The position numbers and the translations under genes were made by a program. From contig DAORIX010000002.1 of assembly GCA_035438745.1 (NCBI GenBank), positions 1,830-65,829 on the forward strand: 64,000 nt of DNA, written 5' to 3'. Numbering within the stretch: the first letter of the stretch is position 1; each line of letters begins with the position of its first letter. This document shows, piece after piece, positions 25,995-57,300 of the stretch. A model generated the notes under the pieces. It had not been told where the DNA came from. It worked only from the letters and a program-made list of their open reading frames with translations, and did no database searches. The stretch comes from Minisyncoccota bacterium (GTDB lineage Bacteria; Patescibacteriota; Minisyncoccia; Phycocordibacterales; UBA6065).

Positions 25995-26312
25995 TTGATT
26001 CTTATCAAAATGAAAGGAGGCTACAGAAAAGGTGCTGGACGGAAGAAAGGCTTTGCTGCGTATGAGGCTGAAAAGGCCCGTGAATTCATCGTGCAAAGAC
26101 TTTCAGCTGATCTTGAGCCAATTATCGAAAAAGCCATCAAACAAGCCAGGAGGGGCGATAAACAGGCAAGAACATGGTTATTTGAGAGAGCTTACGGAAA
26201 GCCTAAAGAGACTGTTGATATGTCGATTAATAATCCGGTTCCCCTCTTAACTGATCCACAAAAAGAAAAGATTGCCAGACGGGTACTCATGAAGACTAAA
26301 AACATCAATTAG
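25995..26312 (+). CDS. Hypothetical basic DNA-binding-like protein (GRKKG-type motif), possibly mobile-element related
   Basis: 105 aa, basic N-terminus MKGGYRKGAGRKKGFAAYEAEKAREFIVQRL. No confident family assignment. Confidence 0.4.
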   Translation: MILIKMKGGYRKGAGRKKGFAAYEAEKAREFIVQRLSADLEPIIEKAIKQARRGDKQARTWLFERAYGKPKETVDMSINNPVPLLTDPQKEKIARRVLMKTKNIN

Positions 26313-26457
26313 ATTGCAAAGTGCAATTTAAGAATCTACCTTAACTACAGAAGCATGTTTTTATAAACCCCTACGCTTTGAACGTCTTCCTGAATAAACC
26401 CAAAGACCAATTCCGTATCGGAGTAAGCTTTACGAGCGTCGATCAGGGATATAAAAC

Positions 26458-26685
26458 CTACTTAATTAAAGCTAGGGCTATAAGTATTAAACTCAGCGCA
26501 AGTCCTACCGGTGCAAAAAGATACTTAGTTAATATCATAGTTTTCTCGATACCGAATATTTTCCTCCAAATATACGCTTTCGGACTTTCGGTTACATATT
26601 TTCTTGCAAACGTTTGATCAATGAAAAATCTTCCTGAAAAATACAAAGCTATGAAGCCAGTTATTATTAATACGATTTTTTCCAC
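26458..26685 (-). CDS. Small membrane protein (75 aa), uncertain
   Basis: Two hydrophobic helices. It overlaps an alternative plus-strand ORF (26378..26617). The strand choice follows the neighbouring operon direction. Confidence 0.3.
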   Translation of the reverse strand: MEKIVLIITGFIALYFSGRFFIDQTFARKYVTESPKAYIWRKIFGIEKTMILTKYLFAPVGLALSLILIALALIK

Positions 26686-26737
26686 GTTAATTATGCTTAT
26701 TTATAACATTTGATTATTCTACTTTCTTTTAGTATCT

Positions 26738-27172
26738 CTATAAATTAGGTATTTTCAATATTTCTCTTACCCCTTTCCATTCCGGATCCCTTTCCATCCT
26801 ATAATCAAATTCTCTAGCCTGAGACCCACTTTCGATAATCTTGTTGAGCGTTGAAGAAATTGTTTGAGGGTTTGTAACATAGAAGAACAAACTCCTTATG
26901 CCGTTATGTGTAAATCGTCCGGCACGATACACCTCATCAACAGCTTTAAATTTGTGATATAGGTCGTCCTCCATATCATTCAGAATCTTATCTTCCATAT
27001 TCGATATTGAACCATTCTCAGAAACAAGAAGTTGGATATTAATACATAAAAACCAAGAAAGTTTTTCTTTAAATTTAGCTTTTAAATACCCTTCTGTAAG
27101 AATGAGATTCCATGGCAAATTATCCTTTTCTCCCTGATAAAGTTTGAACACATCCTGTTCAGTTTTTTTCAT
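26738..27172 (-). CDS. Candidate immunity protein for the RHS C-terminal toxin
   Basis: 144-aa cytoplasmic protein. Its start overlaps the RHS stop codon (ATGA). Position and size fit RHS toxin-immunity pairs. No recognizable domain. Confidence 0.5.
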   Translation of the reverse strand: MKKTEQDVFKLYQGEKDNLPWNLILTEGYLKAKFKEKLSWFLCINIQLLVSENGSISNMEDKILNDMEDDLYHKFKAVDEVYRAGRFTHNGIRSLFFYVTNPQTISSTLNKIIESGSQAREFDYRMERDPEWKGVREILKIPNL

Positions 27173-27173
27173 A

Positions 27174-30100
27174 TTATTTTATTCCAGTTATTCTCTTGAA
27201 ATTATTAACGAACGTCTCAACTTCCTTCTGTGAAATATTAAGGTAATTAGCTGCATTCTTGTTTGAAGGAGAGATGCCCCGAATCGCATTACCAGAACGA
27301 CCTACTGAATTGGCAACATCTTGCCCTATTTGCTCTAGCCCTCTGACCGTATTATATGAATTTGTTGAGTGTATAAGTCGTGCAGGTCCATATCCTTGCT
27401 CATTCATGTGATGAGTACGGTCTCTTTTTATTACATTTTTCTCGGGGATACTCTTACCACTTGTCCTTCCTGTATAAATTATATCGTCTTTCATTTTCGC
27501 ATATATTTCAAAACTTTTTTCAGCGACATTATCAACCTTATTTACAACCTTCGTAGTTCTCGCGACCACACCCACACCAGTTACTCCTGGTATTACCGCT
27601 CCAGCAACATCAAGGCTCAGATAGTTAAGTTCGGTGCGCACGTCTCCACCTGTAGCCATGGCTTCTCCAACTCTATACAAGTCATAGGCAATGAAACCAA
27701 TGTCAGCAATCGTATCAATTATTCTTCCGCTCGGATCTTTCAGTGTAACCGGATTATCACCCGCGTAAGCATATGAGTTCTGTAGTTGTGGGCTAGTAAG
27801 TACCCCCATACCATCATTAGTTAATCCAACTTCCCAAAACACCGGATCCTGTGAGAGGAATTGTCCACGAGCTCCCTCATAATATCGTGCATTCAGATAC
27901 GAGAGGTTATTTCCCTCATTCTCAAACTGCCCGATGAAACCACGATTTGAGTCTGTGCCATCTTCGACTCTCATAGATCCATACGGCATGTAATCCTTCT
28001 CTAGAATAACATCACCTGCCTCATTTGTTACAACATTTGTACTCTCTAAGTGGTCTGGGTGTACATAGTATGTTTTAGCTGTACCTGATGGGCTACCACT
28101 TACAATCGGTCTCTCTACATAGGCTATCAGAGTGTCTCCTGCCCAGATATATGAGGTTGAGGTGCCTGTTTGATATGTAGAGTCAGTATATTCGGCTGAG
28201 TAAAACTTATTTGGATAATGATGAACCTTGCTACCCACTGTTTCCGACATTCTGGCCATTGTGTGGTCGTATGTGTAGGCGGTAGTTGTACCTGTGGTTG
28301 TGGCTGATACGAGACGATTTAGGAAGTCCCAAGTATATGTAGTTGTGGCAGAACTAAAGATTGAAGAAGTAAGGTTACCATTGTTGTCATAGGTATACGT
28401 TGTTGATGCAGTTCCATCAAAATACTCGGAAGGAGCATGAGGATTGAGGTAACCTGAACCTGAATAGAGATAGAGAGACGAAGGTGCTGATTGGCTCACA
28501 GCAACATCAGTGGAGAATGTGGCACCGTTATTGTTCGTTAGATGATTTGCGTTTCCACTCGAATCTTGACCATTGCTATCGAGCTTCCACCAACCCTGAA
28601 GGCTGGAACCGTTTGAGAAATTATATGGATCACTGTAGAAGTTTCCGATTTCCGTTGATGTAAGCTTTCGAGACCATATACGAACATCATCCATGAGACC
28701 ATCGACATAGTATGTCGACACAGAATCAGTTTCCAACATCGCACCGATCGCTAATTTTCTAGCGCTATTATACAAACTTGTCACACTTCCTGTTTGCGTA
28801 CCCTGAGACACACCGTTAATCCATAGTTCGCCTACACTACCGGACCCTGTCCAAGTAAAGACTACATGCGTCCATGCACCTGTAGGAATAGTGCTCCCTA
28901 GTGTCCACGCGAGAGTTTCTTCATATGCGCCACTGCTCGATGGACGGAAGAACATCATGTGGGTACCACCAGCGTTGTACATATAGAGTTTATAAGACTC
29001 TTGGCTCGCATCTCCTTTGTGCACAAGGGTTTGTATCGTTCCGTTGTCAAAAGACTCAGGTTTTATCCATGCAGAAAAAGTGAGAACTGTACTCATGTCG
29101 AGACCTGTCTGAGAAGCATCTGCAATAGACCAAAACTGACTCGAACTTAATTCAAGGTCCGTTGAACGGAAGTTATCCTCTACTTGGTTTGAGAGAATTT
29201 TTTCTTTGAGATTTCCAATTTTGTTATATGAGTACAACTCTCTGAAAGAGACCGAGCTTGTGGCTGTTGTTGAAGCAGAGACAAGACGTGACAAGTCGTC
29301 GTACGCATAATTAACCTTGCGTGCTAGAGATGACGTTGCGGCCTCGATTATCGAAGTAATATTTCCAACAGAATCATAATAGTAGAGGATGTCTTGTAGT
29401 CGAGTGCCGTTTGCATTTGGGAAAGGATCCTCTATAGGGGGCAGTCCTGTATGCTCGATTACAAGTTTCGGATCCTCTGTCGTTCCCGTGGTATCAGCGA
29501 AAACAGTTTCAGCGTTGTATGATCTGTGATCACGCCAACCCGGACTGGTATTATCCAAATCAAGCCCGATACGAAGACCTAACCACGTATTACCAGATTT
29601 ATTTATATTTCCAAGTCCTGTTGAATTGAAGGGAAAATTATAATATTGTCTTGTTGAAATTGTGTTAATCGCTATCTCGGTATTTGACTGTCTGACACTA
29701 TCCCAGTTTGCAATATTATAATCATTATTCACAATAGCGTTTGAGCTTGCAGGACCATCGTGCTTATCAACCACAACTTTAAAGTCACCAGGATTTGTTC
29801 CTCCGCCCATTCCTGAATGCATAGTAACGCTTAATGTGGCAGATAAAATCATATCACTGTCGATGAGTGACGTGTTAAAACCAAATATGTTTCGTACTAA
29901 ATTTTGAAAATAGTAGTCAGCCACACGGATACCTACTTCACCCCCTGCACATGTATCACAAGAAATAACACCGTTTGAATCATGCGCCGAAGCCCAATCA
30001 CCAGAGCCATTCCAATACGCCATACCATCGACAGGTGATGCCTGACCTGCTGCTGAGTAAAAAGTACTCACTGTTTTTCCTTTTTTCCCTTTTATAATCC

Positions 30101-33100
30101 GCTCCGGACCGTGAATATTTTTCATCACAGAGAGATTATGTTCTATGACCTGCAATAGAGCCTCTCGAGGGTCTTCACGAAGGGTACGGACGTATTGTTT
30201 CTCCTCACCGGTAGATACATCTGTCTGCGTCCACTCTTGTCTAATGGTTCCACGCTCATCAGGCACAAGTATAGGAGGATTAAAGATGCGGAAACGCTCC
30301 ATGTCGACTGTACCATCAACACCAAACCCTATTCGTTTTCCTTTACTATCCCAAGCTCGAACAAAAACCTGAACACCACCCTCTATTGGCTCAACAGAAA
30401 CTATCTCAAATGTATAGTCCTTACGTTTCTCACGAACACCGCGAACAGCCTTTGCAATCTCCTCACCTTTAATGTTCGCACGTTTATAAGAACCCTTACC
30501 TTCAAGCAAAGCTCGGATCGAACCAGGCTCTGCAGGTGTAACGGAAAGTATTTTTTCAACAACTTTTGACTCAGTTCTCAAACGTGCTTCCGATGTACTA
30601 GCTGTGGTACTTGCTACCACAGGAACTATAAGAGGTTCAATTGGGACAATTGTTTTGTCATCAGAAACGACTTCATCTTGCGTCTCTACATCTGTTTCAA
30701 GTTCAGGTGGAGCGTCTTTAGGAATAAGCGCTTCCTCTGGAGTGACAGGCTCAGAAATCTCATTTGGAGAACTTTCATCAGAAGTTTTCTCTGTTTCTTG
30801 TGTAGAAACTTCGTCAGCAGAAACAGCGGGCTCGACTTGTGATGATTCAGGTGTTGGATTTGAAACATCTTCATTCGAAGGATTTTCTATCTCCTGAGCA
30901 TATACACTAGGAGCAAATAAAACTTGAGTAATTTCCTTGAGGCGTGATAATGCAAAATGAGACTTACTAGACGATTCACTTAGAGTCAAACCGCTTGTAT
31001 AAGTTGTGAGAATATTCACGAGGCGATACAGCGCATTAGAGTCATACGCATAATGTGTCTCGATACCATTAGCAAACTTTTTTGCCGCAAGTTTACCGTG
31101 TGGACCATAGTTAAGATCGGTGACGATCGGATTTCCTGCATGAGCAACAGAGTCGATTGTTCCAGCATTGTTATAGTTATAACCCTGAGTGACCCCGTTC
31201 GGAAGCGTAACCGTAAGCGGAGAGCCACGTCTATCGTAGGTATAACTCGTCGTATAAGTCTTATTCCCAATCTTTTTAGCTTCGCTATCAACATTACCTA
31301 AAATATCATAATCAAAAGTAGTCTGTGCAGAGGTACTCGACGCAACACAAAGACGACCGACTCCGTTGTCGCAACTATCATAGGTATATGTGTGCTCTGT
31401 GCCACTAGCTCCAGTATAATTTTCTGTGAGTTTGCGATTCAATGCGTCATAAGAATTTACTATGTTCTGAGCCTTAGGATCAGTACTAGATGCCAAATTT
31501 CCAAAAAGGTCATATGCATAGTTCCAAACCCCATAAGTGGAATCTCCTGATGCGTGTAGGTCTTGGGCGGTCGTGCGACGAGAAAGTCCATCATATGAGA
31601 ATGAACGAGTGTTACCAAGCGAATCGGTCATTCCCACTAAATTGTTGAGCGCATCGTGGGTATAACTCGTCGTATAGGTTTCTTCATCATTGTACTCAAC
31701 AACCGATGAAACATTACCGTAGGCATCTTTCTGTATGTCTTTTGGAACACCATTAGCGTCAGTTACCTTAACCTGCCAAGGGGTATACGCATACGTGGTG
31801 GTTCCAATAGATGTGGCAATCGATACAGGACGCTGCAAGGCATCATATGTGTAATTGGTATAAAGTGAAGATACATGAGTAGGAGAAGTACGCGCTGAAG
31901 TAGATGCAAAATACGGAAGGGACTCCTTCGCAAGTAAACCTGCACTACCGTAAACATAACTTTTAACTGAGTATCGATTGGTCATTTCTGCCTGAGAACG
32001 CTCCTGAATGACACGACCAAGACCATCACGATAAGTGTATACGTCTGTCGTGCTCGCGCTCGTTAAATATGTGCGAGTACGAGTGCTAGCTGGAAATGTA
32101 TCCGTATAAACATAATCTCGTAACACCTCAGTCAGAAGAGGGAATGAAGGATTAGTTTGGCGTTCCTCTTGTACTCGTCCAAGCGGTTCAAATACTGTTC
32201 TACGAACGGTACCGTTTTCATCTTCAACCCTTATTGGCTTGCCCACCATATAGTCATATTCATAATCAGTACCTTGGCTCAAAGCATTCGTAACAGTTTC
32301 TGGGTACAAATTAAATGAGTCATATGAATACGTCGTCGTATTGCTTCGGGGATCAGTCTCCGATGTGACTAATCCATATGAGTTATATGCTTTCGTCGTG
32401 CTTGAATAGTCACTTCCACTGATCCATTTTTCTTCTTTCGTTAAGTTGCCCTTGACCGCAGTACCAAGGGACTGAGTGTCGTAATACAAACGAGTAAGTG
32501 CAACAGATGTTCCTGAGTTGTCTTTGACCTCTTTCGTTGTAGGAAGAGTAAGATTTTTGCTTGTAGTTGCACTATAAGTAATAATCGTGGTACGTGTATC
32601 AGAACCAGTATTGCTATACGTTCCGTCAGACGATCCAGTCACTTCTCCCCTCTCAATTGACTGGAGAAGGTTGCCGGTTGTTGTTGAATAGGAGTATTCC
32701 GTCGCACGATCTTTGTGAGTTGATCCGCCTTCAAAATCCTGGACCGAGTCCGATGCAAGTCGTGTAAACCAATATGCGGGTGTAGGAGAAGATATAGTAC
32801 GACTTGGATTGAGCGCAATCACATTCTTGAGCATAGTTCCAGAGTTAGTACTCGAATATATGACGCTCTTCGCTCCAACGGCTCCGAGTCCCCCTCCGCT
32901 ATCCCAAGATTCTGTGTCTGAAGTCTGGATAAAAGCACCTGAGTTTACAGAATGGCTTCCTGCGGTTGATCCAAACACACCGACAAGCCATGCATTTGGA
33001 GTGTCGGTTGTGACTGTTGCTGTAACCGAAGTGCCTGAAATTCCACCCTCTGCATCGTACCAACCAAATGGATTTTCGGTATCAACACCTGAATACGAAA

Positions 33101-35873
33101 TTGCATGTGCTCCAAACCAGCCGTCTAACCCTCCTCGTGTCATCGTGAGGGTGTGAGTTCCCGTTGGAGGATTAAGTAAATACCACAAATTAACGTTTCG
33201 ATTGCTAGCCGCAGAAGCGCCAGCTCCAACCGGTGTCAGTGCAATACCATTATAAGTAACACCACTAACAAAGAGTCCGCCCTGAGAATCACCAATAACA
33301 AGGAGCATATTATCACTGCTACCTACCGTAAAACTATATGAATGAGACGAACCAGAAGCTACATTTGAAAACTGCGACGAGCCTCGAGCGATGTCAGTTG
33401 TACTGGTACTCGTCGTTGCACTTGTTATGTATTGGTCACTTGAATAAACATAGAATGATTTTTTGAGCGTTGTTGAGGCCATGCTCACAACATCTTCACG
33501 ATATTTTTTTCCAATGAGTGCAAATCCGTCAAGAAGCTCTCCTACGCTTGTCGAGGCCGTGTTGCCTTGATGGTAATAACTCTGTGTTGATCCGAGGCCA
33601 TCAAATCGATTGATTTTTGCAAACCCAGCAAATCGTCTATCTCTAGTGTTTGAAGGATTCAAATAAATTCTGCCACCCTCATACGTGTATGAGTAAGATT
33701 GTGAACCGCCAAAACCATCATTGTCTGTTAATTTTGTGACAACTAAAATTGAAAAAGGTAAGTCGGGATTCTGACTAGCCATTTGAGCCGAAAACTGATA
33801 TTCAATTTGAGTATTTCCTCCCGTACTTAAGCGACGGAATGTGAGCATGTCAGCCTTAGCTGTGCCACCCGAAGATACTGTGCTTTTTGTACTAGCGCTG
33901 TCGGGGATACCGTCTCCATTCCAATCAACGAGCTCGTTGTAATCTACACGTCCTGTCCATTGGCCTCCCGAAACCACCCCATTAAAGATATACTCTGGTA
34001 CCGTGAGAGATGATGTTGCGAATCCACCGCCCGTGTTTAGGTATACGTAATTGTAGCTTCCTGTTTGAATGTCTGTCACACCACTTGCCTTGGTTGAATA
34101 GGACGGCATATTGTATGACCTAATGTAGTCGAGGAGACCGTCACCATTCATATCTATGAATCGAATGCCTTTGTCCCAACCACCTGTCTGACGCACACCT
34201 GTGTTAATGGTCCATCTCGTATCAACAGAACCCCAACTAGATCCATTGTTAAGATAGAATTTGGTTGAACTTGCATCTGAGTACATCCAGTCGTCGAGGC
34301 CGTCTCCGTTAACGTCCACGAGTTGTGACATTGAAACGTCGGTTGCTGTGGTCGGCATTGCCGCAATAGGCGCAAAAGAACTTTTCACTCGCCAACCGTT
34401 CTCCAAACCACTATTGAGATAACTTCCATTAGCGGCACAGATTGTCGTTGTCGCCACATAATCAACAAGCCAGTCGCCGTTAAGATTTCCAAATAATCCC
34501 GTTGCAACACTCTCAGAACCATTCGCGCAACTAAAGAGTGGTAAACGAGATGGGGTTGCAGTGCTTGTCCAAGTGAAAGGAGCGGTGTTCTCGTAGTATC
34601 CTCGAGTAATAACACCACTTGAGTCACGATAGCTTCGTGCAATGTCTGCCTTACCATCCCCATTGAAATCAACGAGGCGGACACCGCGTTCTACGTATGG
34701 AAAATCATTTGATCCTCCGAGCCCAGAGTTGTCGTAGCTCCAAAATTCAGAAGAGACCGCCTGATTATATTGGGGAAAGTTGGGAAATTCATTCTCGTCT
34801 ACGATTCTGTGTGCGCTCGATGTTCCACTATTGCTCCAGAAGACTGCCTTATCAGGCAAACCATTACCATCCACATCGGCAACCATACGAGCACTGTTCC
34901 AAATCCGAGGATTGGTTGATGATGCGTATGTCGGTGTTGAAGTAGAGTATCCAAACGTAACAGCAGGCAAAGCGGCAGTATTACCGTCACTATCCCTTCC
35001 AGTTTCAATGGCTGAAATAAGAAGAGAGCGTGAACCATTGCTTCCACTTAAATAACCAAGAGTATACTTTCTTCTCCATTCATCATTTATGGATGCTTTT
35101 ACTTCTGTAAGACGCTTTGTTGTATTTACCCAAAATCCCGTTTCGTATGAAGTATAAACATCTGGACGTGTTTCGTAAGTGAAATCAACTTCAAATGGAC
35201 CGTCCGTTGTTCCGTTTCCGGTGTACGTAATTTTGGATGGGTAAATCTGATTACCGTCCTTTGTATATTCGAATTTTATGAAGTTGTCATTAGTATCTCG
35301 CACCTCCTCAAGCATCCAGCGATAAACATTATCAGGACTTGTCGTTGCCGACTGCCTAGACGCAGTGGTTGTACCGAAAGAGTATCGTGTGCCGCTTTTA
35401 TCAAATACGGTCCAAACGTTGTTTTGAAGACGGTAGGTAATAAAATTGCCATCCTCAAAGCGATGGCGATATCCTCCATTATTGTCCGATGGAACAAGTT
35501 CACCACCAAGAGATGAGGTAAAGTAGTTATCAATGTAGAGACGATCGGTTCCTATCTGATTCATGCGTGTGATAGACGGAATCGATAACTTCCAACCATA
35601 ACCATAAGGACTCTCACTTAAATCTTGACTGTTGTATGTAAGAGCAAGGTCTGGAGTAAGTCCCTTTCTTCCAGGTGGAACCTTAAACGAAATACTATCT
35701 GTGTATGCACCTTGATTTAAATCGACTCTCACTCTTCCAACACTAGCGCTAACAATATCTTCTCGCTCTTTTGCGTCCACAAGAGAGGGAGGAATAAGAC
35801 TGAGAACAAGATTACACAACACAAAAAGAACGATCGCTCGTCCACATCTGCGCAACGCTACAGTTGAGTACAT
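27174..35873 (-). CDS. Giant secreted RHS/YD-repeat polymorphic toxin, TcB-TcC (BC-fusion)-like
   Basis: 2899-aa uninterrupted ORF with a signal peptide and an SpvB/TcaC N-terminal motif (ISFKVPPGRKGLTPDLALTYNSQ). It has at least five FG-GAP-like calcium-binding repeats (VDVNGDGLPD, DFNGDGKAD, DVNGDGLDD, DMNGDGLLD, DWNGDGIPD). It has many YD repeats and a Glu/Pro/Ser-rich linker. It has a LamG/ConA-like jelly-roll (LTFSAWIKP ... ELWINGVSQG). The RHS core ends NPVTLKDPSGR at ~27723..27755. A unique 182-aa C-terminal domain follows. Confidence 0.85.
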   Translation of the reverse strand: MYSTVALRRCGRAIVLFVLCNLVLSLIPPSLVDAKEREDIVSASVGRVRVDLNQGAYTDSISFKVPPGRKGLTPDLALTYNSQDLSESPYGYGWKLSIPSITRMNQIGTDRLYIDNYFTSSLGGELVPSDNNGGYRHRFEDGNFITYRLQNNVWTVFDKSGTRYSFGTTTASRQSATTSPDNVYRWMLEEVRDTNDNFIKFEYTKDGNQIYPSKITYTGNGTTDGPFEVDFTYETRPDVYTSYETGFWVNTTKRLTEVKASINDEWRRKYTLGYLSGSNGSRSLLISAIETGRDSDGNTAALPAVTFGYSTSTPTYASSTNPRIWNSARMVADVDGNGLPDKAVFWSNSGTSSAHRIVDENEFPNFPQYNQAVSSEFWSYDNSGLGGSNDFPYVERGVRLVDFNGDGKADIARSYRDSSGVITRGYYENTAPFTWTSTATPSRLPLFSCANGSESVATGLFGNLNGDWLVDYVATTTICAANGSYLNSGLENGWRVKSSFAPIAAMPTTATDVSMSQLVDVNGDGLDDWMYSDASSTKFYLNNGSSWGSVDTRWTINTGVRQTGGWDKGIRFIDMNGDGLLDYIRSYNMPSYSTKASGVTDIQTGSYNYVYLNTGGGFATSSLTVPEYIFNGVVSGGQWTGRVDYNELVDWNGDGIPDSASTKSTVSSGGTAKADMLTFRRLSTGGNTQIEYQFSAQMASQNPDLPFSILVVTKLTDNDGFGGSQSYSYTYEGGRIYLNPSNTRDRRFAGFAKINRFDGLGSTQSYYHQGNTASTSVGELLDGFALIGKKYREDVVSMASTTLKKSFYVYSSDQYITSATTSTSTTDIARGSSQFSNVASGSSHSYSFTVGSSDNMLLVIGDSQGGLFVSGVTYNGIALTPVGAGASAASNRNVNLWYLLNPPTGTHTLTMTRGGLDGWFGAHAISYSGVDTENPFGWYDAEGGISGTSVTATVTTDTPNAWLVGVFGSTAGSHSVNSGAFIQTSDTESWDSGGGLGAVGAKSVIYSSTNSGTMLKNVIALNPSRTISSPTPAYWFTRLASDSVQDFEGGSTHKDRATEYSYSTTTGNLLQSIERGEVTGSSDGTYSNTGSDTRTTIITYSATTSKNLTLPTTKEVKDNSGTSVALTRLYYDTQSLGTAVKGNLTKEEKWISGSDYSSTTKAYNSYGLVTSETDPRSNTTTYSYDSFNLYPETVTNALSQGTDYEYDYMVGKPIRVEDENGTVRRTVFEPLGRVQEERQTNPSFPLLTEVLRDYVYTDTFPASTRTRTYLTSASTTDVYTYRDGLGRVIQERSQAEMTNRYSVKSYVYGSAGLLAKESLPYFASTSARTSPTHVSSLYTNYTYDALQRPVSIATSIGTTTYAYTPWQVKVTDANGVPKDIQKDAYGNVSSVVEYNDEETYTTSYTHDALNNLVGMTDSLGNTRSFSYDGLSRRTTAQDLHASGDSTYGVWNYAYDLFGNLASSTDPKAQNIVNSYDALNRKLTENYTGASGTEHTYTYDSCDNGVGRLCVASSTSAQTTFDYDILGNVDSEAKKIGNKTYTTSYTYDRRGSPLTVTLPNGVTQGYNYNNAGTIDSVAHAGNPIVTDLNYGPHGKLAAKKFANGIETHYAYDSNALYRLVNILTTYTSGLTLSESSSKSHFALSRLKEITQVLFAPSVYAQEIENPSNEDVSNPTPESSQVEPAVSADEVSTQETEKTSDESSPNEISEPVTPEEALIPKDAPPELETDVETQDEVVSDDKTIVPIEPLIVPVVASTTASTSEARLRTESKVVEKILSVTPAEPGSIRALLEGKGSYKRANIKGEEIAKAVRGVREKRKDYTFEIVSVEPIEGGVQVFVRAWDSKGKRIGFGVDGTVDMERFRIFNPPILVPDERGTIRQEWTQTDVSTGEEKQYVRTLREDPREALLQVIEHNLSVMKNIHGPERIIKGKKGKTVSTFYSAAGQASPVDGMAYWNGSGDWASAHDSNGVISCDTCAGGEVGIRVADYYFQNLVRNIFGFNTSLIDSDMILSATLSVTMHSGMGGGTNPGDFKVVVDKHDGPASSNAIVNNDYNIANWDSVRQSNTEIAINTISTRQYYNFPFNSTGLGNINKSGNTWLGLRIGLDLDNTSPGWRDHRSYNAETVFADTTGTTEDPKLVIEHTGLPPIEDPFPNANGTRLQDILYYYDSVGNITSIIEAATSSLARKVNYAYDDLSRLVSASTTATSSVSFRELYSYNKIGNLKEKILSNQVEDNFRSTDLELSSSQFWSIADASQTGLDMSTVLTFSAWIKPESFDNGTIQTLVHKGDASQESYKLYMYNAGGTHMMFFRPSSSGAYEETLAWTLGSTIPTGAWTHVVFTWTGSGSVGELWINGVSQGTQTGSVTSLYNSARKLAIGAMLETDSVSTYYVDGLMDDVRIWSRKLTSTEIGNFYSDPYNFSNGSSLQGWWKLDSNGQDSSGNANHLTNNNGATFSTDVAVSQSAPSSLYLYSGSGYLNPHAPSEYFDGTASTTYTYDNNGNLTSSIFSSATTTYTWDFLNRLVSATTTGTTTAYTYDHTMARMSETVGSKVHHYPNKFYSAEYTDSTYQTGTSTSYIWAGDTLIAYVERPIVSGSPSGTAKTYYVHPDHLESTNVVTNEAGDVILEKDYMPYGSMRVEDGTDSNRGFIGQFENEGNNLSYLNARYYEGARGQFLSQDPVFWEVGLTNDGMGVLTSPQLQNSYAYAGDNPVTLKDPSGRIIDTIADIGFIAYDLYRVGEAMATGGDVRTELNYLSLDVAGAVIPGVTGVGVVARTTKVVNKVDNVAEKSFEIYAKMKDDIIYTGRTSGKSIPEKNVIKRDRTHHMNEQGYGPARLIHSTNSYNTVRGLEQIGQDVANSVGRSGNAIRGISPSNKNAANYLNISQKEVETFVNNFKRITGIK

Positions 35874-36490: not shown

Positions 36491-37252
36491 ATGCTTGCTT
36501 TCATAGATGAGACTGGGGACCATAATTTAAACATGAAGACTGTTGATAATAACTACAATATTTTTGTATTGTCTCTGGTTCTCATTAGAAAAAAGGACTA
36601 TAAGAAGATAGACATGGGGTTTAAAAAGATAAAAAAAGATATATTTGGAGACGAGAACTTTATAATCCACACATGGGAATTAACACATCCAACGCACAGG
36701 AAATCAGACAAACGTAATGGAATAATGCGTGTCCATGAAAAAAGAGAAGAATTTTATAAAAAAATGAATGACTTTATCGAGTCGTCGTTAATAAAGACGT
36801 GCTTCACGGTAGTTAGAAAACTACATTTTGCTGGTAAATATGTATTTCCGTCGGATCCATATGAATTATCTTTTGAAAATCACCTAAACAGAATTTTACA
36901 CTACTCTAGTGGTGATGATATAAGTATTTATGCGGAATCTAGAGATGATGCTTTGGATAAGAGTCTTTTAGCAGAATATACTAAATATTCAATTAAAGGG
37001 GTATGTTTCCACGACTCAGAAAAAATGAAGAGAATAAAGGAATTCAATATAAAAAGCAAAAAAGAAAATATCACAGGACTTCAGATAGCAGATTTACTAG
37101 CAAGTCCAGTAGCAAGACATTTTTTAAATATTAAACCTAGACCAATAGGAAACGAAATACCTTATTCATTAGTAAGAAAAAAACTAGCAGGAAATATAAA
37201 GTTATCCATAACAATTATTCCAGATGATGCAGAGATTAACCTATTGAAATGA
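36491..37252 (+). CDS. DUF3800-family protein
   Basis: 253 aa. The N-terminal FIDETGD and later GLQIADLLA resemble the conserved IDESG and LQxAD motifs of DUF3800. Confidence 0.55.
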   Translation: MLAFIDETGDHNLNMKTVDNNYNIFVLSLVLIRKKDYKKIDMGFKKIKKDIFGDENFIIHTWELTHPTHRKSDKRNGIMRVHEKREEFYKKMNDFIESSLIKTCFTVVRKLHFAGKYVFPSDPYELSFENHLNRILHYSSGDDISIYAESRDDALDKSLLAEYTKYSIKGVCFHDSEKMKRIKEFNIKSKKENITGLQIADLLASPVARHFLNIKPRPIGNEIPYSLVRKKLAGNIKLSITIIPDDAEINLLK

Positions 37253-49377: not shown

Positions 49378-51567
49378 CTACCTACCCAATCTATAGAGCT
49401 GTTTTGCTTCGTCGACAGAGAGCACTCTGTTATATACGCGAACTTCATCAATAGCTCCATCAAATGTTCGTGCAGTATCAGCACGATTACCTATAACCAA
49501 ATCGAGAGAAGCATCGGATCCGGCAGAATCAGTAGCGCCAGCAACAACAGTATGGTACGAAATTTCGACACCGTTCCTATAAATACGTGATCCTGAGTTG
49601 TTATAGCCGGTAGATCCATCCCATGTAACCATAAAATGTTGCCACTCGCCTATAGTAAAACTATTACTTGCACCGCAACGTCCCGCTCTCGCGGTAGCAG
49701 TAGAACCTACTTTTATAAAATATATAGCATTTGTAAGACTTGCTTCTCCAGCGAGACAACCAGCACCTGTAACTAAAGTAATCTGCCATTGGCCAGCAAC
49801 ACCAATATTTCCATTCTTTGCTACCACACGAGATTGATTACCCTCACCTGCAGAATTTGGTTTAATCCAAAAACTAACACTCATAGGAATGAGGTCGTCG
49901 AGAGAACTCGCTGAACCAGCATTCACAATATCGTCCACCGCATCAAAACGTAGTGCCTGACCTGATTTTCCTGGAACAGGAGATGTGGTGGTACTCATAC
50001 TTGTAATCACCGCGTTACTGTTACGACCAGAACGATCGTATGCGATATTATTCGCCCAACTGATGTCAGAACCATTAAATGACCAGTATCCCACGAGACC
50101 GTCAGTAAATCTATTTTGTTGTGATGAGTTAATAGCGGTCTGATTTTGATTGTAGAGTGCCTGTACTTCACTATCAGAAAGTGCCCTACTGTACACGCGC
50201 ACATCGTCTATTTTTCCAGGGAAAAATCGTCCTGGAGTACCACTGATATACGCTCCTCCAATAGCAGCATTGGCTGAAGAACTCTGTGCACCCACAGCTT
50301 TTACAGCACTTGCCACCAATACACCATCGACATATAACACCCAAGATGTCCCATTATAAAGTCCGACAACATGATGCCATGTGTTTATCGGAAAATTAAT
50401 ATTCCAAGAAGTACCGTAGTCGATCGAGGGACCGAAAGTCAGAACCTCCAACTTTGCGGGACTGCCACTATAGCGTAAAACGTATGCTTCTCGAGTACCA
50501 TCAAATCCCTTCTCCATAATTATACCGCAGTAGTTAGCGCAACCATTATTGTTCGATGGAAAAGAACTAAAATTGACCCACGCAGACAATGTTATTTGTC
50601 CCGTAATATTAAGCGCAGACGGATTACCGAGAGCGATAAAGTCATCTGTACCGTCAAAATCCAAAGCCTTGCCTTTCTTTCCTCCTACCCAATCAGTGTG
50701 TGGAGCCATGTTGGTGAGAGTTCCATGAAGGCTATTACCAGAAAAATCATGAGCGATAGTAGAAGTACCTTCGTCAAAAGACCAGTGTCCGACAAGTCCT
50801 CTGTTTGAAACAACCTTACGAGTCACCTGACCGTTTGAGTAGAGTGCCTGAATTTCATTGAGAGATAGAGCTCTGTTATAAATACGCACGTCGTCTATTT
50901 GAGCACTGACATACCCGTCATCACCAGTACCCACTCCAGCTCCGATAGCAACCGCTCCTCCGTTGTTCATACTTCCCATACTCGCACCCGACGTTGCAAC
51001 AAGAACTCCATCATAATAAAGGAGTGCATTAGAGCCGTTTGAAACACCGACAATGTGGACCCATTTGCCTGTTTGAGGAAAAGGTCCGATAGCCCACTGG
51101 TTTTCAGCACCTCCCTGCCTACCAAAACGCATACCAGTACCAACATGAGACCAAAAGGCATATGAGCCAGAAGCTTTCGACAAAAGATCGCCGTCATCCC
51201 ATACAGAATCTTTGACCCACATAGAAATAGTCACTGTGCTCGAAATGTTGAGCCGGCCTTGAGAATCAGTCACAGAAACATACTCATTTACACCATCAAA
51301 ATCGAGTGCCTTTCCCCTTTTACCGTTTATCCAGTCGGTTGCCTCCATGTTGTTGAGGTTTCCGTTTTGACCAAAACCAGAAAAATCATGAGCAATAGTC
51401 CCAGCACTTTCATCAAAAGACCAGTAACCCACAAGACCGAGGTTTGATGGCGGTTTAGAGAAAGTTCCAGCATGAAGAGGTAAAACCATCAACAAGTAAC
51501 TTGCCACAACAAAACCAAATACAAAGGTAAATCGAATTTTTTTGCTATGTAGTAGTGAGGAAAACAT
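49378..51567 (-). CDS. Secreted protein with three LamG/ConA-like lectin-fold repeats
   Basis: 729 aa with a signal peptide. It has three repeats of GLVGYWSFDE..GT.A.D.SG...G...NM....DW..GK.GKAL.FDG.DD.V........W.H.V......LY.DGV.......IDDVR.YNRALS..E...LY. Confidence 0.7.
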   Translation of the reverse strand: MFSSLLHSKKIRFTFVFGFVVASYLLMVLPLHAGTFSKPPSNLGLVGYWSFDESAGTIAHDFSGFGQNGNLNNMEATDWINGKRGKALDFDGVNEYVSVTDSQGRLNISSTVTISMWVKDSVWDDGDLLSKASGSYAFWSHVGTGMRFGRQGGAENQWAIGPFPQTGKWVHIVGVSNGSNALLYYDGVLVATSGASMGSMNNGGAVAIGAGVGTGDDGYVSAQIDDVRIYNRALSLNEIQALYSNGQVTRKVVSNRGLVGHWSFDEGTSTIAHDFSGNSLHGTLTNMAPHTDWVGGKKGKALDFDGTDDFIALGNPSALNITGQITLSAWVNFSSFPSNNNGCANYCGIIMEKGFDGTREAYVLRYSGSPAKLEVLTFGPSIDYGTSWNINFPINTWHHVVGLYNGTSWVLYVDGVLVASAVKAVGAQSSSANAAIGGAYISGTPGRFFPGKIDDVRVYSRALSDSEVQALYNQNQTAINSSQQNRFTDGLVGYWSFNGSDISWANNIAYDRSGRNSNAVITSMSTTTSPVPGKSGQALRFDAVDDIVNAGSASSLDDLIPMSVSFWIKPNSAGEGNQSRVVAKNGNIGVAGQWQITLVTGAGCLAGEASLTNAIYFIKVGSTATARAGRCGASNSFTIGEWQHFMVTWDGSTGYNNSGSRIYRNGVEISYHTVVAGATDSAGSDASLDLVIGNRADTARTFDGAIDEVRVYNRVLSVDEAKQLYRLGR

Positions 51568-51613: not shown

Positions 51614-53779
51614 TTATTTTCTACCCATTCCGTATAACTTTTTTACTTCATCGGCAGACAGTGCTCTATCATAGATACGAAACTCATCCATATTTCCATC
51701 AAAACGACCAGTTCCACTTTGATGACCACCGATTAAAGGACGTATTGGAGTCAAACTAAGACTACCAGAATCAACCACGGAGCTTTGGAAAACACCGTTC
51801 CTATAAATAGAAAAAGTACTATTATAATTGCGAACAAACGCAATATGGGTCCACTCATTAAGAACAATATCCCCAATCGTACAAACAGCCCCTAAGCCAG
51901 TACTATTTTCATAACGCTTTTGCAAACAATACTTATTCCCTATTGGTTTAAGCGATATAAGTGAGTTACTAGTAGTCATGCGATCAAAAAAATAAGTACC
52001 TGAACCATCGGTCGAGAGACCGTTCGTATAAGCACGAGGCTTTAACCACACACTGTATGTAAAACTACCATTAGAATTTATACTCGGATTAGCGTTCACC
52101 TCAACAGAATCATCAACACCGTCAAAACTCAGAGCTTGGCCTGATGCGCCCGCTACTGGTGATGATGAGTTACTCATATTAACAATGGAAGCATTATTTC
52201 CTCTCCCTGAGCGATCATACGCTACGTTTGTAGGCCAATGTATATCAGGAGCATTAAATGACCAGTAGCCGACAAGACCGCTCGTCAGTTGATCTTTTTG
52301 TGGAGCATTAATTAATGTTTTATTTTGTTGATATAGTGCTCTTACTTCAGACGAAGAAAGTGTTCTATTATAAATACGTACATCATCAATATTTCCATCA
52401 AAAGATCTAGTCCCAGCGAATGCATCACCTCCTATCCTGAAAGAACCGTTAAGTGTTTGATTGTTGTGCGTGATGACGTTTTCAGCACTACGACATGAAT
52501 CACCAGTACATAAATACGCTGTTGCTTTTGTTGGTTCAATCGCCACTGCAACCAAAGACCATGTATCCAATGGTATTGAAAGCCCACTCGACCATCCATA
52601 TGTTGCAACATTATTATCGTTCCAAGTATATGTTAAGTCATTTGTAGCGTCTCGATAGTGTATACCAACTGACTGTGGATCATTTCTTAAATACAATATA
52701 CCTGTATAGGCTCCTGTTCTTACCCCTTTAACCCACGCAACAAAGGTTACTGTATTTGAAGTAATCCCAGAAACAGGAAATGAAACATAATCATTCGTAC
52801 CATCAAAGTCTAAAGCTTTTCCCTTCTTGCCTGCTACCCAGTCGGTGTTTGCGTCCATGTTGGTCATATTTCCATTGCGACCATTCCCTGAAAAATCATG
52901 AGCGATGGTGGATGTGCCCTCGTCAAAAGTGAAATGTGCAAGAATGCCCCTGTCGGATACTCCAGTTCGAATCGTCTGTCCCACAGTAGCAAGCGCCTTG
53001 ATTTCATCTCGAGTCAACGCCCTGTTGTAAATACGCACATCATCAATGGAGCCCGCAGTGAATTCAGAAGTACCTTGATATGAACCGAAATACGCGCCCG
53101 TTGATCCTGAGAAGACCGGAAGGTTTACATTGGGTGTATCTTTTTGGTTTGTAACAGACCCATCAACGTACACTTTGAAACCATTAGTTGTATTCTTCTC
53201 CCACGTCATAGCAATATGCCGCCACTTACCATCATGTACGTTACCGCCACCAATATTCACACCTGTGACTCCTCCGTCTGTAGAAACGAGAGCACGTGGT
53301 GCAAATGCCCCACTACTTGTCCAACCTAAAACAATATAAGCAGTACCATCTTGTAAGCGCACCATAGACTCAATATCAGAACCCTTAAACCAACCGGCTA
53401 TTGTTATTGCAGTATTACCAGAAACACGACTAGAAAGATTGGCGCTTGGTAACGCAACATAATCATCGACTCCATCAAAATCAAGAGCCTTACCTCTCTT
53501 GCCCGCTACCCAGTCAGTAGATGCATCCATGTTGGTCATAACACCGTTGAATCCATTCCCTGAAAAATCACGAACAATCGTAGAGACACCCTCATCAAAA
53601 GACCAGTGACCAATGAGCCCGAAGTTTGAAGGAGGTTTTGAAAAGGTGGCAGCATGAACAGGCAAAACCATTAACGAGTAACCTGTCACGACAAAACCAA
53701 ACAAAAGGGCAATTCGGATATTTTTAATGTTAAACAAAAAAGACATTATGTTTTTATTATTTCCACTCCATAGTAGCAA
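51614..53779 (-). CDS. Secreted protein with three LamG/ConA-like repeats, a paralog of 49378..51567
   Basis: 721 aa with the same repeat architecture and the same N-terminal sequence pattern (VLPVHAATFSKPPSNFGLIGHWSFDEG). Confidence 0.7.
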   Translation of the reverse strand: MLLWSGNNKNIMSFLFNIKNIRIALLFGFVVTGYSLMVLPVHAATFSKPPSNFGLIGHWSFDEGVSTIVRDFSGNGFNGVMTNMDASTDWVAGKRGKALDFDGVDDYVALPSANLSSRVSGNTAITIAGWFKGSDIESMVRLQDGTAYIVLGWTSSGAFAPRALVSTDGGVTGVNIGGGNVHDGKWRHIAMTWEKNTTNGFKVYVDGSVTNQKDTPNVNLPVFSGSTGAYFGSYQGTSEFTAGSIDDVRIYNRALTRDEIKALATVGQTIRTGVSDRGILAHFTFDEGTSTIAHDFSGNGRNGNMTNMDANTDWVAGKKGKALDFDGTNDYVSFPVSGITSNTVTFVAWVKGVRTGAYTGILYLRNDPQSVGIHYRDATNDLTYTWNDNNVATYGWSSGLSIPLDTWSLVAVAIEPTKATAYLCTGDSCRSAENVITHNNQTLNGSFRIGGDAFAGTRSFDGNIDDVRIYNRTLSSSEVRALYQQNKTLINAPQKDQLTSGLVGYWSFNAPDIHWPTNVAYDRSGRGNNASIVNMSNSSSPVAGASGQALSFDGVDDSVEVNANPSINSNGSFTYSVWLKPRAYTNGLSTDGSGTYFFDRMTTSNSLISLKPIGNKYCLQKRYENSTGLGAVCTIGDIVLNEWTHIAFVRNYNSTFSIYRNGVFQSSVVDSGSLSLTPIRPLIGGHQSGTGRFDGNMDEFRIYDRALSADEVKKLYGMGRK

Positions 53780-54336: not shown

Positions 54337-57300
54337 TTAAGGGGTTTCAGGTGCTGGTTCTGGAGCAGGTTCAGGATCTGGGGTTGGAGCTGGCTCTGGA
54401 TCAGGTGTTGACTCCGGTGTCGGTTCTGGATCAGGAGTAGGTGTTGGTTCAGGGGTCGGAGTAGGTTCAGGATCTGGGGTTGGAGCTGGCTCTGGATCAG
54501 GTGTTGACTCCGGTGTCGGTTCTGGATCAGGAGTAGGTGTTGGTTCAGGGGTCGGAGTAGGTTCAGGATCTGGGGTTGGAATTATTGGACTTGTTGTTGT
54601 CGCTCCACACTCTCCTGCCTCAGACTGCATCACACCGTTTGCGATAAACATACAAACAGATTCGCCTGTAATACGATCGGTCACCGTGATACCCGCAGTA
54701 CTCCTGTCATCAGGAACAATCTTGAGAGATTTCGCGGTAACAGCATTCGCCACAAGATTGTTTACCGTTATTGTTTCTGCGAATATGTCGGTAAAGCGCG
54801 CAATCGTATTTTCAAACACTACACCAATCTGAGTAAACCACTCTGAAACTATTGAAATAGTTGTCGATGCTGTTGTTGAAGCAGTAGTTGTTCCTGAGAG
54901 AGCCTCGAATGTCGATGTTGCAGTTGTTGAAGACATTATAGAAGCGAGGAGATTTGCTGTGGCGTCGAGGCGAGCTTCGAGTGTTGTTACGCGATCAGAC
55001 AAAGCATCGATTACACGAACCTGTTCCTGAACACCAGCGAGGATGTAGGTAGAAAGTTTATAAATATCTACACCCTTACCTCCAGGAGCGAGAACTTCGA
55101 GTGGAGCCTCTTCTGCAATGAGACCGAGGCGAAGAGGTTCTGAACCTGACTCAGTGTTGTAGTGATACGTTGCAACTCCAATATTTCGAATGGTATCCAA
55201 GACAGAAGCTTTCTCTTCTTGTGACAAGTACGTAATATCTTTCTTTGCATCTCGTGTTGAAACATTTACAAACGATGTCGCCGCAACATCACCATCTACA
55301 TAGAGTTTGTATGCTGCCGAAGTAGTACCGAATCCTGCATGACCATTCGCGTCAATCACAAAGACCTCGTCACCTTCATTGTCCTTGAGAATAAGTTTTT
55401 GAAGTACAGAAGGATTGAGATCGCCTTCAGTAAACGCAAAGCTGTTTGCGAACACCAAGTCGCCCGTATAGGTATTTCCTGTTGTACGGAGATTTCCCTT
55501 GACCCATAGGTTTGAAGAGTACGTTGATGTTGAGTTTGCGCCAGTACCCAAGACATCGAGATAACCAAAGATTGTTGATGTAGCGCTTGTTGATGTTGCG
55601 GTGAACTTTTCTGCAACAACAGCACCTGCAACTGACAACTTTGCATATGGAGATGATGTTCCAATACCTACAGCGGTATTTTTTATACCTCCCGCACCGT
55701 TTGATTCAGCGTACACAGTAAGAAGTGGATCGCCGTTGATAGCTGCGGTGTAGCTCTGCTTTGTACCATCTGCTGACGCTGACGTTACTGGCATATCTGT
55801 CCATGTCACAATACCTGCATCAGAATCAAATGTTGTGATACCCAACTGAAGGTTATCGATGTTCGTTACTCCTGATGAGAAGTCATAACGAAGAGATCCG
55901 TTACCCACATTGAATCCTCCAGCAAATGTTGAAGTAGCTGTTGTTGATGTTGCAGTGAACTTTTCTGCAACTACCTCACCTACAACTGACAACTTTGCGT
56001 ATGGAGATGTCGTACCGATACCAACGTTTCCGTTACCCGAAACGATGAAGAGTGTTGATGTCGCAAGGTTGGTTGATGATGTTGCAATGACAAAGAGAGG
56101 AGTAGCTACCGCTCCATTATGTGAACCAACAGAAAGCTTTGCGTATGGTGATGTGGTACCTACGCCAACTGTTCCAGCGACAAGTGTTCCAACAGAACTT
56201 CCTTTTGTACCGGCACCAACAAATAATTTGCCAGCCTCTCCTCGAGAAATACCTATATCTTTTGTTGACCACCACTGATCATTACCCCAACCAACAATTG
56301 CCTGATATCCCAAATTGACTCCTCGAGGATAGTTAGCGGACTCAGTACTACTATCAACGAGCATCGCTGTCTGATCATCTAGCGTACCCAAGTTAGAAGA
56401 ACCAATAAGACCATCCTCACGAATAAAGGCAACTTGTACTCCTGATGAGTTATTGATACGGAGGACAGGATTAGCAGTACCTCCTCCCACGTTACCTGCT
56501 GCTCCCTGAATAGTCACACGAGTATTTGTTGTACCTCTAAAGAAAGCAGTAGCCGCAGTAGCAGAACTCAACACTGAGAACGTATTAAACGGAGTTGTAG
56601 TTCCTACTCCCACATTTCCAAATCGATCAACAATAAACACTGTGCTTGTGGCAGTACCTGCTGTTGAAGATGCGATAACAAAGAAAGGAGAGACAGGATT
56701 TGTTGTAGTAGAAACAGAGAGTATTCCCCATGGAGACGTGGTACCGAGACCCATTCTGTATGCAGAGTTGGTGTAGATAGAGAGAGCATCTAGAGTAGAT
56801 GTTGCCCACTTTGAATTTGCACTACCTCCGCCTCCCGCACCGCCGTCATCATCAGAACAAACAACTTGTCCCAAAGCATTTGTAGTGAGGGCTCCACCGT
56901 TGGTGTTTCCTGTACAGTTAAGTCCTGTTATAACAAGGGCAGTGGTTGATGCAGTACCTGTGGCAGTGAGGTTACCTCCGATGTATGCATTGCCGGCTAC
57001 AGAAAGACGGGTGAATGGCGTAGATGTACCAATACCAATTCTGCCACCTTGCACAATCCTCATTGCTTCAGATTGCGCAGGAGAAAATGCAATAAAGTTT
57101 GCTGTTCCGCCTGTGTAATTAGTCGTAACGTTAAGATAATTGTCTCCGCTATTATTAAAGAGAAGCTGAGCGTTTTGACTCGTTGCACCACTGCCGAGCT
57201 GCAAGAGGCCGTTTGTAGAATAGATACCTGTGTCCACACCAAGTGATCCAGAAACACTAAGATTTCCTGTTGTTGTCGCACCACCAGAAATAGTGAGACC

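Follow-up and report, generated by a model that had tools for sequence, protein, structure and literature searches.

The DNA analyzed here is a stretch of 64,000 nucleotides from a Minisyncoccota bacterium (contig DAORIX010000002.1, hereafter the window), in which a giant RHS/YD-repeat gene ends in a variable C-terminal tip and is followed by a small gene on the same strand. We find that this locus is very probably a conventional RHS polymorphic toxin-immunity module, in which a GIY-YIG/Tox-URI1 tip is paired with an immunity protein of the DUF695 family, in a genome of Candidatus Paceibacterota, bacteria of the candidate phyla radiation (CPR) that now form the phylum Minisyncoccota in NCBI taxonomy. 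The toxin is a divergent member of the known Tox-URI1 kind, and the only probable new point is the use of DUF695 as an additional immunity family. Our analysis makes it likely that short, cytoplasmic DUF695 proteins (∼145-160 residues) are a previously unrecognised immunity family for GIY-YIG/Tox-URI1 toxins, which has replaced Imm26 in several clades and precedes Imm26 in others.

The carrier gene (27174..35873, minus strand) is an intact open reading frame (ORF) for an RHS/YD-repeat polymorphic toxin of 2,899 residues, with its stop codon, TAA, at 27174-27176. The protein begins with a hydrophobic, signal-peptide-like segment (hydropathy maximum of 2.4 at residue 14), and it matches the Pfam domains SpvB, FG-GAP_3, RHS_repeat (E 7.5e-18), Laminin_G_3 and DUF6443, as well as the NCBIfam model YD_repeat_2x (E 7.4e-18). 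The RHS repeat-associated core domain occupies residues 2628-2716 (27726..27992, minus strand) and ends in ...LKDPSG; TIGR03696, the NCBIfam model Rhs_assc_core, recognises it with a score of 50.9 bits (cut-off 32.5; E 1.7e-13). Because the match to TIGR03696 ends at residue 2716, directly ahead of the tip, the boundary at DPSGR (residues 2713-2717, 27723..27737) is correct, and the variable tip begins at residue 2718. A sequence-only reading of the stretch had placed the tip there, and both the ORF and the domain limit confirm it: the tip comprises the last 182 residues of the protein, IIDTIADIGF...KRITGIK (27177..27722). By analogy with other Rhs proteins, the DPSG end of the core is the presumed site of autoproteolysis.

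Closer inspection of the tip reveals two modules. Four proteins (P0001-P0004) emerged when the whole tip was used as query in a word-index search, and the part common to them is only the first ∼55 residues (IIDTIADIGFIAYDLY...GAVIPGVTGxG). In each protein this segment sits directly after the DPxG end of the core and is followed by an unrelated C-terminus, one of which is HNH-like by eye. This divergence indicates that tip residues 1-55 (RHS residues 2718-2772, IIDTIADIGFIAYDLY...LDVAGAVIPGVTGVGVVAR; 27558..27722, minus strand), which are glycine-rich and moderately hydrophobic, are a reusable pre-toxin linker, probably a delivery or translocation adaptor. Pfam PT-TG (PF14449) gave no match to these residues at E≤10, so we describe the segment only as a shared pre-toxin linker; a PT-TG match elsewhere in the protein was found in only one of 63 members of the toxin family. 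The remaining 127 residues (RHS residues 2773-2899; 27177..27557, minus strand) are the toxin core, a basic segment (isoelectric point, pI, 9.8) that is predicted to be a Tox-URI1-like nuclease with the GIY-YIG/URI fold.

Base composition also differs between the two modules. The RHS body has a GC content of 0.438 (standard deviation 0.024; no 381-bp window below 0.375). The linker, encoded by the first 55 tip codons, lies above this level, at 0.479, whereas the last 127 codons, at 0.367, lie under every 381-bp window of the body; the DUF695 gene downstream has a GC content of 0.343. Thus the AT-rich swapped cassette begins ∼55 codons past the core boundary and not at the boundary itself, and the earlier statement that the tip is more AT-rich than the body holds for the toxin core but not for the linker. 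As far as composition can tell, the low GC of the toxin core and the immunity gene fits a swapped cassette.

To what family, then, does the core belong? An exhaustive phmmer search with the 127-residue core returned 433 cluster representatives (clusters at 50% identity) with E≤1e-3, of which 209 reach E≤1e-10. The end of the domain lies at most 54 residues from the C-terminus in 150/150 listed relatives, whose lengths range from 106 to 2,783 residues, and in 63 longer members the region ahead of the domain carries RHS_repeat (15), PT-HINT (8), DUF6443 (7), RHS (6) and Laminin_G_3 (3). Because it is always C-terminal in the listed relatives, on RHS, PT-HINT and DUF6443 carriers, this is a polymorphic-toxin C-terminal domain. 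An identity with Ntox10 was considered and rejected: Ntox10 matched 3 of 63 full-length relatives outside the C-terminal domain and none of 49 trimmed domains.

An alignment of 49 members defines the residues that the family retains. Eleven core positions are invariant (Y28, G30, G34, N41, R45, H49, R72, G73, E75, G86 and Y105) and eight are nearly so (Y19, K21, R31, T32, D46, H50, Q76 and N90), with Y19 and N90 conserved in at least 90% of the sequences. The window toxin keeps all family-invariant residues, and in RHS numbering the predicted catalytic set is Y2791, Y2800, G2802, R2817, H2821, E2847 and N2862. Together with P0007, P0008 and P0009 it forms a divergent subclade, marked by RGLEQ instead of RGREQ, a loop after helix 2 that is four residues shorter, and an extra C-terminal helix.

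The fold was examined with an AlphaFold2 (AF2) model built on the family alignment, which reached a predicted local distance difference test score (pLDDT) of 94.4 and a predicted template-modeling score (pTM) of 0.84. Its elements follow the order β-β-α-β-α-α (β1 15-23, β2 26-34, α1 38-47, β3 60-65, α2 68-84, α3 102-124), giving a predicted three-stranded sheet with the element order of a GIY-YIG (URI) nuclease. The conserved residues fall on the elements expected for that fold: Y19 on β1, Y28 and G30 on β2, R45 and H49 at α1, E75 on α2, and then N90. The spacing of four from Arg to His and of fifteen from E75 to N90 are those of I-TevI, the sequence of which was confirmed for this comparison against PDB entries 1MK0 and 1LN0. 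When the core model was compared by Foldseek with the predicted viral structures of BFVD, 12 of the top 50 matches were named GIY-YIG and 8 others were NUMOD proteins or endonucleases of the homing or intron type; the best match had E 1.2e-3 and a probability of 1.0.

A sequence bridge to the GIY-YIG family came from a metagenome scan with the subclade alignment, which found only two loci, neither of them in the subclade. One of the two, a PT-HINT toxin end (L094:51-527), passes the Pfam GIY-YIG model PF01541 with 29.9 bits against a threshold of 22.6 (E 6.8e-7) and matches the hidden Markov model (HMM) of the toxin family with 22.5 bits (E 1.2e-7 among 47 sequences). The alignment to the family model covers the Tyr, YxGRT, R..H, RGxEQ and N.INGxS columns.

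The name of the family follows from earlier work. Zhang, de Souza, Anantharaman, Iyer & Aravind described Tox-URI1 in 2012 as a nuclease toxin domain of the URI/GIY-YIG type in polymorphic toxin systems, with the signature 'Y, YxG, R, [RK]xxE, N', with RHS and HINT proteins as carriers, and with Imm14, Imm26, Imm44 and Imm51 as immunities (PMC3482391). The core family matches this signature exactly (Y19, Y28xG30, R45, R72xxE75, N90), and, like Tox-URI1, it is C-terminal on RHS and HINT proteins, has a wide phyletic spread and usually has Imm26 downstream. Because signature, carriers and the Imm26 link combine, we take Tox-URI1 to be the right family name, set by the published description and not by the authors' alignment. 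Rhs tips annotated as GIY-YIG have in addition been noted in surveys of Salmonella and Stenotrophomonas, so the kind of toxin was already known, at least computationally. With 433 cluster-level relatives and a fit to a domain described in 2012, the core is not the novel toxin that it had been taken for.

We therefore assign the core to the GIY-YIG group on the AF2 element order, the BFVD matches, the Tox-URI1 signature, the Pfam-passing bridge and the Imm26 neighbours of 74 of 80 genomic homologues; judged by model and sequence, it is predicted to be a divergent GIY-YIG (URI) nuclease-fold domain. It resembles the GIY-YIG domain (PF01541; I-TevI, 1MK0/1LN0; UvrC N-terminal domain, 1YCZ/1YD6) in its predicted topology and in its Tyr on β1 and β2, the Gly after the second Tyr, the Arg-x3-His pair, and the Glu followed by Asn at +15. 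It differs in a 7-residue insertion (GxxxPxxN), shared by the toxin family, between β2 and helix 1, and in a first motif that reads T-Y-Q-T-Y and not G-I-Y; the window toxin core also has no attached DNA-binding domain. Within Tox-URI1, in turn, the window copy stands apart by its divergent subclade and by its pairing with DUF695, not with Imm14, Imm26, Imm44 or Imm51.

The second half of the module is the gene that follows the toxin. The junction reads ...AAA TAA T ATG...: the stop codon, a single spacer base (27173..27173, minus strand; ...ggaataaaaTAAtATGaaaaaa...) and the start codon. There is no overlap, so the ATGA overlap described in the sequence-only reading does not exist here, although ATGA overlaps (gap -4) do occur in many homologous loci. 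The gene itself was correctly delimited: it is a 144-residue ORF (26738..27172, minus strand; stop TAG at 26738-26740) that encodes a small, apparently cytoplasmic protein without a hydrophobic segment (maximum Kyte-Doolittle 19-residue mean 1.08) and with a mildly acidic pI of 6.15. This protein is not the founder of a new family; it scores 54 bits on Pfam DUF695 (PF05117), where the cut-off is 23.1, and covers positions 30-128 of the 134-position profile (E 2.8e-14). An identical protein in a metagenome-assembled genome (MAG) carries the NCBI annotation 'DUF695 domain-containing protein [Candidatus Paceibacterota bacterium]'. The AF2 model of the protein (pLDDT 86.4) is an alpha+beta sandwich. 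Literature searches for DUF695 found no paper, and its role as a Tox-URI1 immunity appears unrecorded. The search for promoters and terminators around the junction gave nothing above shuffled expectation.

Analysis of gene neighbourhoods provides the evidence for a role in immunity. A genome scan for the toxin family, with one genome per species, yielded 80 loci in Proteobacteria, Bacteroidota, Firmicutes, Actinobacteria, Planctomycetota, Spirochaetota, Myxococcota, Verrucomicrobiota, Acidobacteriota and one Methanosarcinales MAG. A single family of ∼150-residue proteins supplies the gene next after the toxin in 74 of the 80, and Pfam identifies it as Imm26 (PF15428) in 6/6 sampled sequences; DUF695 is the first downstream gene in two (L012 and L064). 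A DUF695 profile search found 45 proteins, and genomic context was examined for nine of them. All five short forms (120-160 residues; P0191, P0161, P0163, P0167 and P0160), which were picked regardless of context, have a toxin-family ORF immediately upstream. Within the window subclade, a DUF695 gene of 147-148 residues comes after the toxin in P0007, P0008 and P0009 alike, so that the pairing holds in four of four members. Conservation of the downstream ORF beside homologous tips, the point on which the sequence-only reading had staked its proposal, is thus seen in ten independent loci, where DUF695 lies directly downstream of the toxin (the window, L012, L064, L081, L083, L085, L088, L089, L092 and L093). 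The same three clades are seen among the toxins and among the DUF695 proteins, with a Pearson r of 0.83 between their pairwise identities, the pairs not being independent. The proposed toxin-immunity arrangement stands, with an RHS toxin, a swapped tip and a co-oriented gene that, to judge from the genomic pattern, behaves as its cognate immunity.

Several observations weigh against this interpretation. As had been noticed at the outset, the tip has no recognised motif: the window toxin matches no nuclease model in Pfam (E≤10), NCBIfam, PADLOC or PHROGs. Foldseek of the core against solved PDB structures gave nothing significant (best E 0.69), the GIY-YIG entries 1zg2 and Slx1 6seh appearing there only at E 0.9 and 4.8, and when the family profile was compared by hhalign with I-TevI alone or with a profile of four I-TevI and UvrC sequences, the probability stayed below 1%, these profiles being too thin to tell much. 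The match of the bridge sequence to the family model is modest, with E 0.0026 when scaled to a million sequences. As for the partner, no solved structure is significantly related to the DUF695 model, Foldseek against PDB giving only generic alpha+beta matches (eIF4E-like, E 4e-3); DUF695 is absent from the immunity families listed for Tox-URI1 (PMC3482391); and none of the four long DUF695 forms examined (181-199 residues, with an N-terminal extension that is hydrophobic in three of the four) has a toxin neighbour (L087:4001-4561, L090:4001-4576, L091:4001-4600 and L086:606-1151). Finally, in L012, L085, L088 and L089 the order is toxin, DUF695 and then Imm26, the last ∼430 nt after the toxin stop.

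Searches with the wider family likewise gave little. None of the 49 toxin-family members had a Pfam match reaching PF01541, one having a weak GIY_YIG_2 match (E 0.14), and PHROGs gave nothing useful for the same 49; a PDB sequence search by phmmer found only a chance-level match to YerB, and the family profile found nothing. A link of DUF695 to RraB was dropped after the generic Foldseek result.

The alternative that survives best, though we consider it improbable, is that DUF695 is an accessory protein, such as a toxin stabiliser or chaperone, or a passenger, protection being provided by Imm26 where it is present and by another gene in the window genome. It is favored by the loci in which Imm26 follows DUF695, where the protective partner could be either protein, by the prevalence of Imm26 among the genomic homologues, by the silence of the literature and of the published immunity list on DUF695, and by the long forms that lie away from toxins. 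However, six of the ten loci (the window, L064, L081, L083, L092 and L093) have DUF695 as the sole conserved partner, with no Imm26-like ORF in the 2.5 kb downstream or up to the end of the contig, and the DUF695 protein of the window has no Pfam Imm26 match. The window holds only one toxin-family match and one DUF695 match, hence no second such ORF and no orphan cassette of the family, with Imm26 sought only within 2.5 kb downstream. DUF695 occupies the canonical immunity slot, on the same strand and with a 1-nt gap or an overlap, and it diverges with the toxin in the same clades. A distant homology between Imm26 and DUF695 was tried and rejected, since a comparison of Imm26-like with DUF695 sequences by hhalign returned a probability of 0.2%; the two are unrelated, and the pattern looks as if one immunity family had taken the place of the other, as often happens in polymorphic toxin systems. 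Because the long forms have no adjacent toxins, DUF695 seems to have at least two contexts, with only the short form toxin-linked.

Less likely still is that the GIY-YIG fold acts on RNA or on another phosphodiester, or that the divergent subclade is inactive. The changes that define the subclade (RGLEQ, the 4-residue loop deletion and the added C-terminal helix) could be read in this way, but the window sequence keeps every family-invariant residue, an intact and conserved immunity gene argues for an active toxin, and the characterised GIY-YIG enzymes I-TevI, UvrC, Slx1 and Eco29kI cut DNA. Least of all do we favor a truly novel, non-nuclease toxin fold whose downstream ORF founds a new immunity family: the failure of direct model, PDB sequence and PDB structure searches would agree with it, but a large family that fits the Tox-URI1 signature, a predicted topology and residue placement that match GIY-YIG, BFVD matches dominated by GIY-YIG proteins, a homologue that passes the Pfam GIY-YIG model, and a downstream protein at 54 bits on DUF695 make it very unlikely.

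On the reading of the locus as a GIY-YIG/Tox-URI1 toxin with a DUF695 immunity, the system would operate as follows. The 2,899-residue protein would be exported by means of its N-terminal signal-like segment, and its RHS/YD shell, as in Rhs/TcC proteins, would enclose the C-terminal tip. The Rhs-associated core ending at DPSG would free the tip by autoproteolysis, and the tip would enter a neighbouring cell, where the 127-residue core, if it acts as GIY-YIG enzymes do, would cut DNA in a divalent-metal-dependent manner. By analogy to I-TevI and UvrC, Tyr2791 and Tyr2800 of the β-hairpin, Arg2817 and His2821 of helix 1 and Asn2862 may have catalytic roles, with Glu2847 of helix 2 as the metal ligand. 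In the producer cell the DUF695 protein would bind the nuclease in a 1:1 complex and block it, thereby acting as the cognate immunity, a role that in most of the toxin family would be taken by the unrelated Imm26.

It is instructive to compare the locus with known systems. Rhs/YD contact-dependent toxins with downstream immunity genes and orphan cassettes are exemplified by B. subtilis WapA and enterobacterial Rhs proteins, and shells of the TcB-TcC type are related examples. The window protein resembles them in its SpvB-like N-terminal region, its RHS/YD repeats, its DPxG-ended core, its variable tip and its adjacent immunity gene. It differs from the WapA, enterobacterial Rhs and TcB-TcC types in its host, a CPR bacterium (Paceibacterota), and in the Laminin_G_3 domain and long low-complexity segment inside the RHS protein. 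This segment, an acidic stretch rich in Pro, Ser, Thr and Glu at residues ∼1590-1700, follows the first RHS repeat block; after it come several hundred residues without a Pfam match, then Laminin_G_3 (2258-2409), the final repeats and the core, so that residues ∼1590-2409 (window ∼28646..31106, minus strand) form an unusual interruption of the RHS shell. No type VI secretion system (T6SS), PAAR or VgrG context was seen in the window as far as it was examined.

Orphan cassettes, known from other Rhs systems, also occur close to the window toxin in sequence: its closest homologue, P0007, forms with its immunity gene an orphan cassette (L081:3229-4568) behind a full-length gene. P0007 is a 297-residue ORF with a GTG start that repeats ∼80 residues from the core end of the upstream full-length gene, and its DUF695 gene follows it. 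The upstream gene (L081: 3-2318) has its own, different tip and is followed by a 129-residue gene (2323-2712).

The only experimental Imm26 pair that we found in the literature is TepC-TipC of Yersinia pseudotuberculosis, in which an Imm26-family immunity neutralises a Mg2+-dependent DNase effector (PMC10833071). By its published description it resembles the toxin family, whose members are predicted DNases, in having an Imm26-family immunity beside a DNase effector. It differs in that the key residue reported for TepC, E17, has a position unlike that of the conserved Glu in the toxin family, and in that the immunity candidate in the window is DUF695 and not Imm26.

Further variety was seen around the toxin family. 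Two loci (L013:3389-4009 and L031:2137-2748) have a third downstream family of ∼205 residues, without a Pfam match, after the toxin; in L067 the toxin is directly followed by a 336-residue leucine-rich-repeat-like protein, and in L049 by an unrelated 155-residue protein without a Pfam match. These proteins are candidates for further immunity types. In L085 and L089 further small genes follow, DUF6572 among them, in what looks like a poly-immunity array. The 6-kb metagenome contig that holds the bridge sequence carries an array of cassettes (L094:51-3994), in which a PT-HINT/GIY-YIG tip comes first, a Tox-URI1-like tip with Imm26 second, and a further HINT-end tip, followed by a small ORF, last. 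In the Methanosarcinales archaeon MAG (L054, contig CAYRXW010000001.1) a toxin-family tip lies on a protein of more than 1,000 residues with Imm26 directly downstream, which could be a real cross-domain transfer or a binning artefact. Two of the four long DUF695 genes lie near adenylosuccinate synthetase genes.

Other large genes lie elsewhere in the window. A second giant ORF (54337..63828, minus strand; 3,163 residues) starts with GTG and combines a YadA_head repeat with a Peptidase_S74 chaperone domain close to its C-terminus and a long Pro/Thr/Glu tail; it looks like a self-processing surface fibre; its two neighbours of ∼720 residues (49378..51567 and 51614..53779, minus strand) have three Laminin_G_3 domains each. 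Downstream of the immunity gene, the stretch 25995..26737 is AT-rich (GC 0.33) and holds a 75-residue hydrophobic ORF (26458..26685, minus strand) and a 105-residue ORF with a weak DUF5681 match (E 0.016), and a DUF3800 protein is encoded at 36491..37252, just upstream of the RHS gene. The AT-rich stretch and the DUF3800 gene may be mobile-element remnants flanking the RHS locus. No tRNA genes were found in the window.

The understanding of polymorphic toxins is unchanged by this locus. The toxin family, which spans most bacterial phyla and includes one archaeal MAG, is detected by no Pfam or NCBIfam model, with the result that its tips routinely go unannotated or are reported as novel; a detecting model could be built from the family alignment together with the bridging sequence. 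If the proposed pairing is true, it would give Pfam DUF695 its first function and Tox-URI1 a fifth immunity family. It would also mean that CPR bacteria of the Paceibacterota carry a complete RHS nuclease weapon, a data point on competition among reduced, often episymbiotic bacteria.

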